DNA from: Escherichia phage Pandora71
Sequence record: PV841870.1
DNA length: 44,696 bases
Reading direction: 5' to 3' (one strand)
The notes below the pieces were generated by a model. It searched no databases and was not told the origin of the DNA. It saw only the letters and a list, made by a program, of their open reading frames with translations. A program made the translations under genes and the position numbers. Within the stretch, counting starts at the first letter, position 1; each line of letters starts with the position of its first letter. Positions 45-100 of the stretch are shown here, piece after piece.

Positions 45-73
45 TTGCATTCACCCCGGCACCTTGTTATATT
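45..73 (+). promoter_or_regulatory. putative sigma70-type early promoter (TTGCAT-N17-TATATT)
   Basis: -35 TTGCAT 45-50, 17-nt spacer, -10 TATATT 68-73; followed by GGTTGCACACCAAC element and RBS GGGAGGG before ATG 101. Confidence 0.4.
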
Positions 74-100
74 GGTTGCACACCAACGGGAGGGCGGAAC

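Follow-up and report, generated by a model that had tools for sequence, protein, structure and literature searches.

A short asymmetric word recurs in the genome analysed here, and we read it, with a probability of roughly 0.55, as a set of operators lying in about ten sigma-70-type promoters of non-structural genes. The word is enriched, conserved among relatives, associated with promoter-like sites and placed within them in recurrent registers. The window, by which we mean the whole stretch of 44,696 bp, is the complete genome, circularly permuted, of a Dhillonvirus, one of the HK578-like virulent coliphages. It is ~92 % identical to bov22_1, Sponge, PTXU06 and Zumzum, and its gene map (Table 1) uses calls carried over from phage Zumzum.

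A short word at promoter-like sites

The initial annotation of this DNA had described a recurrent 9-mer with at least 12 occurrences and had proposed counting it against a shuffled genome. Over both strands of the whole window, TTGGTTGCA has 12 exact copies where 0.48 are expected. None of 100 dinucleotide-preserving shuffles reached that number, and composition bias is therefore ruled out as the cause. An unbiased ranking of k-mers also placed ATTGGTTGC and TTGGTTGCA among the most over-represented 9-mers. The core of the word is the 8-mer TTGGTTGC, with 20 copies in the window versus 1.8 expected. The base at -1 is A in 14 of these copies, the base at +8 is A or C in 17, and the flanks of the 20 copies hold no conserved base beyond these two. 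The full unit is A-TTGGTTGC-A/C, an asymmetric 8-10-mer and not a palindrome. The inverted repeat TTGGT-N5-ACCAA, earlier taken to look like an operator, had to be given up as the general unit: it occurs only three times in the window and has no significance with one mismatch allowed. No conserved partner half-site lies beside TTGGTTGC, and the two-fold symmetry of Cro/CI-type operators is missing. A second co-located word, AATTTTGC, was considered and is not enriched (5 versus 2.7). Weaker TTGGTCGC copies accompany promoters C and H (Table 1).

The mostly intergenic location described earlier was borne out, with 16/20 core copies lying between genes in a genome that is 8.0 % intergenic (P ~1e-14). 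The copy at 21405 sits in coding DNA and is probably irrelevant. A 44-aa ORF called over 41-80, like other small ORFs called across motif sites, is probably regulatory DNA. The sites listed in the initial annotation are real, with some corrections to make: the first copy is at 41-49 and not 39-50, the copy near 26.8 kb is at 26862-26870, and the coding-region copy at 800-808 had been omitted. The TTGGTTGCC variant at 44276 was correctly placed; the others are at 44330 and 44365, and an inverted one at 44645, over which the promoter scan found no promoter-like site, had been overlooked. The ATTGGTTGCC copies at 44276 and 44330 lie in a 40-nt repeat, and that at 44365 is 15 nt upstream of a TATAAT. 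In all, TTGGTTGC is scattered over 11 loci and does not form the single-locus tandem cluster of replication-origin iterons, whereas a second repeat family in the window, the iteron-like GCGGGACA, does cluster. Full-text literature, searched for both strands of the motif and for Dhillonvirus promoters, yielded no description of TTGGTTGC or TTGGTTGCA, and the promoters and terminators annotated in GenBank records of relatives are consensus-predicted only.

Sigma-70-type promoters were predicted by a position weight matrix (PWM) scan of both strands, and all promoters named here are consensus predictions. Sites scoring at least 10 cover 4.2 % of the genome and contain 16/20 core copies (P for the overlap ~4e-19), with the motif's own TTGCA contributing part of the score. 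The association is nevertheless not circular, because four promoters (41481-41452, 38592-38564, 10789-10760 and 3293-3322) have a -35 hexamer separate from the motif. The motif is present in 5/8 top-scoring sites, and a sixth (41599-41627) is followed by TTGGTCATTAACCAA. The earlier view that the word marks a family of promoters thus holds, and the four promoters then named (45-73 on the plus strand; 10789-10760, 30068-30040 and 31978-31950 on the minus strand) were all recovered by the scan. Inspection of hexamers identified 11 sites in which a -35-like hexamer stands 16-18 bp from a -10-like one that has A2 and T6. The motif is missing from the promoter-like sites of the structural operon and from the one that precedes the terminase gene (4865-4893). 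In seven other Dhillonvirus genomes, 10-15 of 19-23 copies fall within promoter-like sites.

Table 1. Transcription units, predicted promoters and copies of the word in the window.
Feature	Position	Strand or direction	Details
Rightward unit	from 41659, across window ends, to 9952	+	begins with 109-aa HTH protein, then helicase-primase
Later genes of rightward unit	up to 9952	+	small accessory, lysis, metallophosphoesterase (3495-4637), terminase, portal, head morphogenesis
Gene of 109-aa protein	41659-41988	+	first gene of rightward operon, at divergent control region
Short Nmad5 unit	9966-10864	leftward	Nmad5 protein
Structural operon	10880-25589	rightward	
Lipoprotein and DUF6453 genes	25617-26806	leftward	exclusion-type
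Tail fibre gene	26888-28504	rightward	
Long replication/recombination operon	28531-41435	leftward	
TTGGTTGCA copies	41-49, 72-80, 30047-30055, 30059-30067, 41460-41468	+	
TTGGTTGCA copies	800-808, 3299-3307, 10753-10761, 10767-10775, 26862-26870, 31957-31965, 31974-31982	-	
TTGGTTGC copies beyond the 9-mer set	34932 (-), 38555 (+), 38571 (+), 21405 (-)		
Sites with both hexamers	45-73, 799-827, 3293-3322, 10789-10760, 26866-26838, 30068-30040, 31978-31950, 34935-34907, 38592-38564, 41481-41452, 41599-41627		hexamer inspection
Promoter A	45-73	+	TTGCAT-17-TATATT; PWM score 12.6; upstream of small accessory genes from 101
Motif copy, promoter A	41-49	+	-39..-32; its TTGCAT is the -35 hexamer
Second motif copy, promoter A	72-87	+	-8..-1, within 16-mer TTGGTTGCACACCAAC (TTGGT-N5-ACCAA)
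Site B, internal promoter-like	799-827	+	TTGCAA-17-TACATT; inside gene 613-882; conserved in relatives
Motif copy, site B	800-808	-	provides -35 hexamer on opposite strand
Promoter C	3293-3330	+	TTGACT-18-CATACT; after terminator 3263-3284, upstream of gene 3495
Motif copies, promoter C	3299-3307; 3322-3330		inverted, in spacer; weaker (TTGGTCGCA), at -7..+2
Promoter D	10746-10789	-	TTGCAA-18-TATATT; upstream of Nmad5 gene unit
Motif copies, promoter D	10767-10775; 10753-10761		-22..-15; -8..-1
Promoter E	26838-26870	-	TTGCAA-17-AATACT; lipoprotein/DUF6453 (exclusion-type) genes; motif 26862-26870 at -39..-32
Promoter F	30040-30068	-	TTGCAA-17-TATATT; 5' hairpin follows at 30011-30030
Motif copies, promoter F	30059-30067; 30047-30055		-33..-26; -21..-14; both inverted relative to transcription
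Promoter G	31950-31982	-	TTGCAT-17-TATCTT; hairpin and T5 directly downstream (31946-31922)
Motif copies, promoter G	31974-31982; 31957-31965		-39..-32; -22..-15
Promoter H	34907-34939	-	TTGCTG-17-TATAGT; end of VRR-NUC gene, upstream of Lar-like gene
Motif copies, promoter H	34932-34939; 34920-34927		second copy weaker TTGGTCGC, in spacer
Promoter I	38555-38592	-	TTGACC-17-TAAATT; upstream of SSB/annealing gene
Motif copies, promoter I	38571-38578; 38555-38562		inverted; -21..-14; -5..+2
Leftward promoter, divergent control region	41452-41481	-	TTGACA-18-TATCAT; top PWM score of genome; conserved
Motif copy, leftward control-region promoter	41460-41468		inverted; -22..-15
Rightward promoter of HTH gene	41599-41644	+	TTGACA-17-TAGTTT, then palindrome TTGGTCATTAACCAA (41630-41644)
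ATTGGTTGCC direct copies	44276, 44330, 44365 (region 44276-44373)	+	after helicase-primase gene
Inverted TTGGTTGCC copy	44645-44653	-	upstream of promoter A

Registers were computed relative to the promoters in the window and in four divergent genomes. Five occur in all. Copies at -39..-32 have the same orientation as transcription, and their 3' half, TTGCAn, is the -35 hexamer. Those in the spacer at -31..-24 are mostly inverted, those at -22..-15 abut the -10 hexamer in either orientation, and the remaining registers are -8..-1 and +3..+10. All of them overlap the promoter core, as is expected of operators. Promoters with two copies always use two different registers, and the pairs are direct, inverted or everted at spacings of 12-31 bp. 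The earlier description of the sites as operator-like is therefore apt for the many copies that occupy the spacer or the -10/+1 region in either orientation, leaving aside the N5 palindrome that had been attached to it. The identical 16-mer reported behind two promoters also exists, at 72-87 in A and 10746-10761 on the minus strand in D, the latter placed one base off in the original account.

The word is maintained in other Dhillonviruses. In Zumzum, HK578, bob, SSL-2009a, WF5505, Teewinot and 011D5 we counted 19-23 core copies and 9-16 exact 9-mers each, in the same places. In alignments of all motif-bearing regions the copies stand out as invariant islands while neighbouring spacer bases vary; the copy at 41-49, for example, is invariant in the seven relatives and the spacer of promoter A is not. 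Averaged over 17 sites, conservation is 93-99 % at motif positions and 63-97 % in the flanks. Three metagenomic contigs of 20, 20 and 10.7 kb, with the same gene order and ~72 % identity in alignable DNA, hold 13, 13 and 10 core copies, respectively. Individual copies are gained or lost among Dhillonviruses while the total stays constant. A deletion has removed one copy of pair G from Teewinot, module C as a whole has been replaced in Zumzum and Teewinot, and four genomes have acquired an extra ATTGGTTGCC copy through a 54-bp duplication. Pair F is direct in the window and inverted in all seven relatives, one copy having been flipped yet kept. In three divergent relatives (L008, L010 and L011), two tandem copies stand at the place of the leftward control-region promoter. 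IMG/VR was scanned twice, once for tandem pairs and once for ATGTTGGTTGCAAT; the matches were mostly due to chance, to repeats in coding DNA and to a few pieces of relatives already known, and the 109-aa HTH protein discussed below was encoded at 0/240 loci from the two scans.

Candidate proteins for reading the word

The best candidate for a reader of the motif, which we put forward tentatively, is the 109-aa protein encoded beside the divergent control region. HTH_23, HTH_28 and Sigma70_r4_2 all score above their cut-offs on it. Its AlphaFold2 model (pLDDT 87) comprises a short helix, a 59-residue helix (21-79) and a C-terminal HTH (84-107), and the long helix suggests a coiled-coil dimer. 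The HTH superimposes at ~1 Å on those of GerE/NarL/LuxR, sigma region 4, DeoR and serine recombinases; this match covers ~35 residues with no significant E-value, and the model has no significant whole-chain structural match. The C-terminal half is nearly invariant in 24 homologue clusters and the very divergent HK578 allele, with an identical recognition helix in all 24 clusters, and the N-terminal ~45 residues are hypervariable. The protein is present in ~154 phage records, and all examined genomes that encode it contain the motif. In L008, L010 and L011 a full motif copy lies at +3..+10 of the HTH gene's strong promoter, where the window has the palindrome TTGGTCATTAACCAA, a degenerate motif. 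Autoregulation would not be universal, because HK578 has no palindrome in the leader of its HTH gene. As another target of the HTH, the GCGGGACA iterons are disfavoured: this family is missing from L008 and L011, both of which keep the gene. The variety of pair arrangements, direct, inverted and everted at 12-31 bp, speaks against binding by a rigid dimer.

Outside the genus, Klebsiella phage VLCpiS11a (Guernseyvirinae) carries 13 TTGGTTGC copies, in promoters syntenic with those of Dhillonviruses. Its copies prefer G at -1, and two of its promoters have the form TTGGTTGCAA-17-TATAGT. Neither tblastn nor a profile built on the conserved C-terminal domain (best E = 2.7) found a homologue of the 109-aa protein there. 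The syntenic regulator position is occupied by a gene for an unrelated XRE-type HTH, and Pfam scans of 20 small VLCpiS11a proteins gave the XRE-type HTH only. The motif thus occurs without the 109-aa protein, which would imply either another reader or a non-homologous regulator in that phage reading the same word. The host alone does not dictate the motif, because the related phages VSiA and Jersey (both of Salmonella) and K1G (of E. coli) have zero copies.

Alternative readers were sought by taking a profile of every protein in the window no longer than 300 aa and running it against VLCpiS11a and the motif-negative VSiA. Only Nmad5, a Dam-like methyltransferase and the phrog_757 'methyltransferase' are common to VLCpiS11a and absent from VSiA; none of the three is a recognisable sequence-specific regulator, and they were set aside as readers. 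Nmad5 was recovered in 6/10 family loci and 3 loci do not cover its region, so that one complete genome lacks it. The protein encoded at 3495, whose N-terminal HTH had been suggested in the initial annotation as a possible binder, turned out to be a poor candidate. Its HTH signals (residues 8-48) are sub-threshold, motif-free VSiA has an orthologue that is 74 % identical overall and shares the recognition helix (RNVYMRKARL versus RNVQIRKAKL), and the 3495 protein is absent from motif-positive VLCpiS11a.

Proposed operators and competing explanations

We propose that A-TTGGTTGC-A/C acts in cis as a regulatory element within the promoters from which host RNA polymerase would transcribe the non-structural units; every such promoter would have one copy or two, in the stretch from about -39 to +10. 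The promoters concerned would be that of the leftward operon (41481-41452) with the internal promoters I, H, G and F, together with A and B (small accessory genes), C (phosphoesterase), D (Nmad5 unit) and E (exclusion-type genes). A copy at -39..-32 along transcription would lend its last bases, TTGCAn, as the -35 hexamer. Copies in the spacer, at -10/+1 or in the early leader would not be polymerase elements; they would serve as operators, and a sequence-specific protein bound to them would occlude the promoters and switch the whole set together. Judging from the positions of the copies, this switch would be repressive, most likely turning the promoters off in the course of infection and feeding back on the promoter of the regulator itself. 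The likeliest reader would be the 109-aa coiled-coil protein with its predicted LuxR/sigma-region-4/resolvase-type HTH. Each asymmetric 8-10-bp site would be read by a single HTH; a flexible dimer, having two, could span pairs of copies whose spacing and orientation vary. The -35 copies may serve activation instead of repression, and so may pair D, which precedes a rightward promoter-like site (10784-10812) directed at the structural genes. The motif-bearing promoters, whose activity is predicted from sequence, would be early ones to judge by the genes downstream, which serve replication and exclusion or encode nucleases, methylases and small accessory proteins.

A simpler account would do without a dedicated regulator: the word would be an extended -35 element (TTGG + TTGCAn) read by region 4 of sigma-70 and spread by promoter duplication, and the copies in spacers and at +1 would be remnants or weak overlapping promoters. 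The motif does contain TTGGTT and yields TTGCAA on the other strand when A follows; 13 of the 53 promoter-placed copies in the window and four divergent genomes sit at -39..-32 and supply the hexamer. A 20-mer common to A and D, and a longer block common to D and F, look like duplications, and VLCpiS11a, with its two TTGGTTGCAA-17-TATAGT promoters, carries the motif without the HTH protein. We nevertheless consider this account unlikely. More than half of the copies lie outside the -35 reading position (at -31..-14 and -8..+10) and, on inspection of the sequence, without a -10-like hexamer 16-18 bp downstream; they are as conserved as the -35 copies, even in the ~72 % identical contigs. All eight bases are conserved, including the TTGG upstream of the hexamer, one copy was flipped but kept, and none occurs in related phages of E. 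coli and Salmonella, which are transcribed by the same polymerase. It is because the copies outside the -35 position are equally conserved, tolerate inversion and are not polymerase-readable that we read the motif as an operator.

If a protein reads the word, it need not be the 109-aa one. There is a slim chance that a different, still unrecognised phage protein common to Dhillonviruses and VLCpiS11a does so, and that the 109-aa HTH has another role, for example at the origin, its gene lying directly upstream of the helicase-primase gene and beside iteron-like repeats. The motif in VLCpiS11a, without the HTH, would fit. The profile searches, however, offered only Nmad5 and the two methyltransferase-type proteins for the part, Jersey has a Dcm-like protein and lacks the motif, and an origin role sits poorly with the loss of the GCGGGACA iterons in genomes that retain the HTH. 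The phage might instead borrow a regulator of E. coli or Klebsiella, in keeping with the presence of the motif in two phage groups with unrelated regulator genes at the syntenic locus and with the failure of any phage DNA-binding protein to track it across genomes. The half-site ATTGGT presumably resembles PdhR/UxuR-type GntR boxes, and GTTGCATT what we take to be the CytR octamer. This we regard as improbable, since the sequence 3' of TTGGTTGC varies at +8 to +10 and a CytR operator's conserved ATT after GTTGC is missing, GTTGCATT has 2-6 copies per genome against 19-23 of the core, and the defining features of a PdhR-type site are lacking, with a palindromic partner at only three sites and N5 where the PdhR box has N3; the close relatives K1G, Jersey and VSiA again have no copies. 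Nor is the word a sigma-54 promoter, in which GG and GC dinucleotides are 10 bp apart (TGGCAC-N5-TTGCA): the GG and GC of the motif are 2 bp apart, and pairs of copies lack the required spacing. Finally, it is highly improbable that transcribed copies act in RNA, as an mRNA-stabilising 5' hairpin (UUGGU-N5-ACCAA). Stable hairpins do follow promoters F, G and I, but the leaders of A and D are not significantly structured (-2.2 and -2.9 kcal/mol; z-scores +1.2 and -1.4), most copies are upstream of the predicted start or in an orientation that gives a different RNA, and Rfam 15 has 0 matches at gathering score in the whole window.

Even with operators as the preferred reading, the reader could be unconventional, because Dhillonviruses and VLCpiS11a share the element and their syntenic regulators are unrelated. 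We give little credence to the idea that the element is older than the control-locus regulator gene and does not depend on it. Should it hold, the tandem TTG-TTG word might imitate a -35 element for region 4 of sigma-70, and the sigma-4-like Dhillonvirus protein might compete with sigma for these sites as a global promoter switch; alternatively, the word might be read by a phage or host protein yet to be recognised.

Significance and comparison with known systems

Dhillonviruses are common, easily isolated virulent coliphages, included in the BASEL collection and frequent in studies of anti-phage defence. Their transcription depends entirely on the host RNA polymerase, and we found no Dhillonvirus transcriptome or account of transcription timing in the full-text literature. 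A word of 8-10 bp at about ten promoters and a small protein that may regulate them offer a testable model of their programme of gene expression. They could also serve as a handle for engineering, either as portable regulated promoters or for silencing accessory genes. The type of control, in which a phage transcription factor governs a regulon through dispersed operators, would be ordinary for phages and the example new; general concepts of phage regulation would stay unchanged unless the reader proves unconventional.

Several known systems share parts of this arrangement. Like the MotA boxes of phage T4, the word is phage-specific, replaces or overlaps the -35 element of host-type promoters and would mark a temporal class. 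MotA boxes, however, have a fixed position at -30 and a fixed orientation, and act in activation with AsiA, whereas here there are five registers and both orientations; the fixed placement relative to the -10 hexamer that defines a MotA-box middle promoter is missing, and Pfam and PHROG scans found no MotA or AsiA homologue. The NarL/GerE class of HTH is the closest structural match of the 109-aa protein, and NarL reads short asymmetric units that may be direct, inverted or single, at varied promoter positions. The 109-aa protein has no receiver domain, however, and the sequence differs.

In regulatory logic the closest relatives appear to be the C1 operators of phage P1 and the Cro control region of phage lambda. 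P1 is a temperate phage with a 17-bp operator and a C1 repressor of 283 aa. As with C1, a short non-palindromic word occurs at many promoters genome-wide, singly or paired, and overlaps their cores; here, unlike in P1, the phage is virulent, the word has 8-10 bp and the candidate reader comes from another protein family. The operators of Cro, palindromes of 17 bp, are found in the control region only and are thus unlike the asymmetric copies at about ten promoters described here, and the predicted coiled-coil with its sigma-4/GerE-type HTH is unlike the Cro fold. The resemblance to lambda (PR-PL) lies in the layout: the rightward operon, in a divergent promoter region, begins with the gene of the candidate regulator, the sites overlap the leftward promoter and, in relatives, the candidate regulator's own promoter, and the expected outcome is, as with Cro, a turn-down of early transcription.

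A second repeat family and the polarity of Chi sites

Apart from the promoter-associated motif, the window carries a second repeat family, GCGGGACA, with 16 copies against an expected 2.1. The family forms two iteron-like clusters (see the table), one lying 3' of the helicase-primase gene and the other in a gap of ~700 bp with the tail chaperone and tape-measure genes on either side. The two regions are paralogues with 85 % identity, and small ORFs have been annotated across them in relatives. GCGGGACA is kept in all eight Dhillonviruses compared and is missing from L008 and L011, two divergent loci that have the motif and the HTH protein. 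The clusters are candidates for one or more replication origins or for packaging sites. The loop of a hairpin close to the cluster at 44424-44526 reads as its reverse complement (ataaaac) in bob, SSL-2009a, 011D5 and Teewinot, which looks like an inversion of the palindrome.

Chi sites (GCTGGTGG) are likewise frequent, with 10 copies where 1.5 would be expected, and their orientation is polarised by genome region. Two of the three copies on the - strand lie inside the helicase-primase gene, which is itself on the + strand. The orientation switches at roughly 44 kb and 30 kb, points that would be compatible with replication proceeding both ways from the iteron region near 44.4 kb, or with defined DNA ends being shielded from RecBCD.

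Features of the window outside the motif itself
Feature	Position	Strand	Remarks
Chi sites, n=7	2832-28775 (2.8 to 28.8 kb)	+	
Chi sites, n=3	34183-43816 (34.2 to 43.8 kb)	-	
GCGGGACA iteron-like clusters, n=2	16354-16610 and 44424-44526		
135-nt repeat	16535-16669 / 44451-44585		common to both GCGGGACA regions
Hairpin	~44398-44419		TTATGCA-gttttat-TGCATAA
Extra 89-aa gene	29721-29990	-	between PNK-like gene and next gene
29-bp direct repeat	29687-29715 / 30011-30039		flanks 89-aa gene on both sides
Terminator-like hairpin + T5	31922-31955		directly downstream of promoter G -10
Second leftward promoter-like site	41586-41558	-	TTGAAA-17-AATAAT; divergent control region

Genes and hairpins next to the motif promoters

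A 44-aa ORF annotated in relatives spans the predicted promoter A and its motif pair (44667..44696 + 1..102) and is probably mis-annotated regulatory DNA. Predicted promoter D would drive the gene at 9966-10730 (-), whose 254-aa product is an Nmad5 protein (nucleotide modification associated domain 5; E = 1e-53). An Nmad5 protein is also encoded within the early leftward operon of the motif-positive Klebsiella phage, and the Nmad5 protein hints at a DNA-modification function hitherto undescribed for Dhillonviruses. Immediately behind promoter F is the extra 89-aa gene, whose product has no Pfam match. The repeat flanking the gene includes a GC-rich hairpin. In relatives the site is just a gap of ~60 bp, and the gene resembles a cassette-type accessory (moron) gene inserted here. 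At promoter G, a transcript would start within the 5' arm of the adjoining hairpin and would not be terminated by it; transcription reading through from upstream would be halted there.

The divergent control region and the loci of the HTH proteins

In the divergent control region, a strong terminator-like hairpin with a T11 run (about 41527-41489, -) lies ~30 nt past the second leftward promoter-like site; the leftward promoter that carries the motif comes shortly after it. Together, site and hairpin would yield an RNA of ~60 nt. The predicted RNA includes ATTGGTTAGC, a near-copy of the motif, and Zumzum annotates a 48-aa ORF over this region (41489-41586). Among homologues of the neighbouring 109-aa HTH protein, the N-terminal ~45 residues (41659-41800) are hypervariable and unalignable between lineages, HK578 having a 142-aa version. 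The 60 residues at the C-terminus hardly vary. The pattern suggests that the N-terminus is a partner-binding surface under diversifying selection.

The 3495 protein, a poor candidate for reading the motif, has an orthologue in the motif-free Salmonella phage VSiA, vsia_06, which is annotated as a transcriptional regulator. Directly upstream of vsia_06 (VSiA 6183-6630) are four copies of TGTTGCC, all intergenic and including the palindrome CGGCAACA-N13-TGTTGCCG; it is possible that these sites are an operator for this HTH-phosphoesterase protein.
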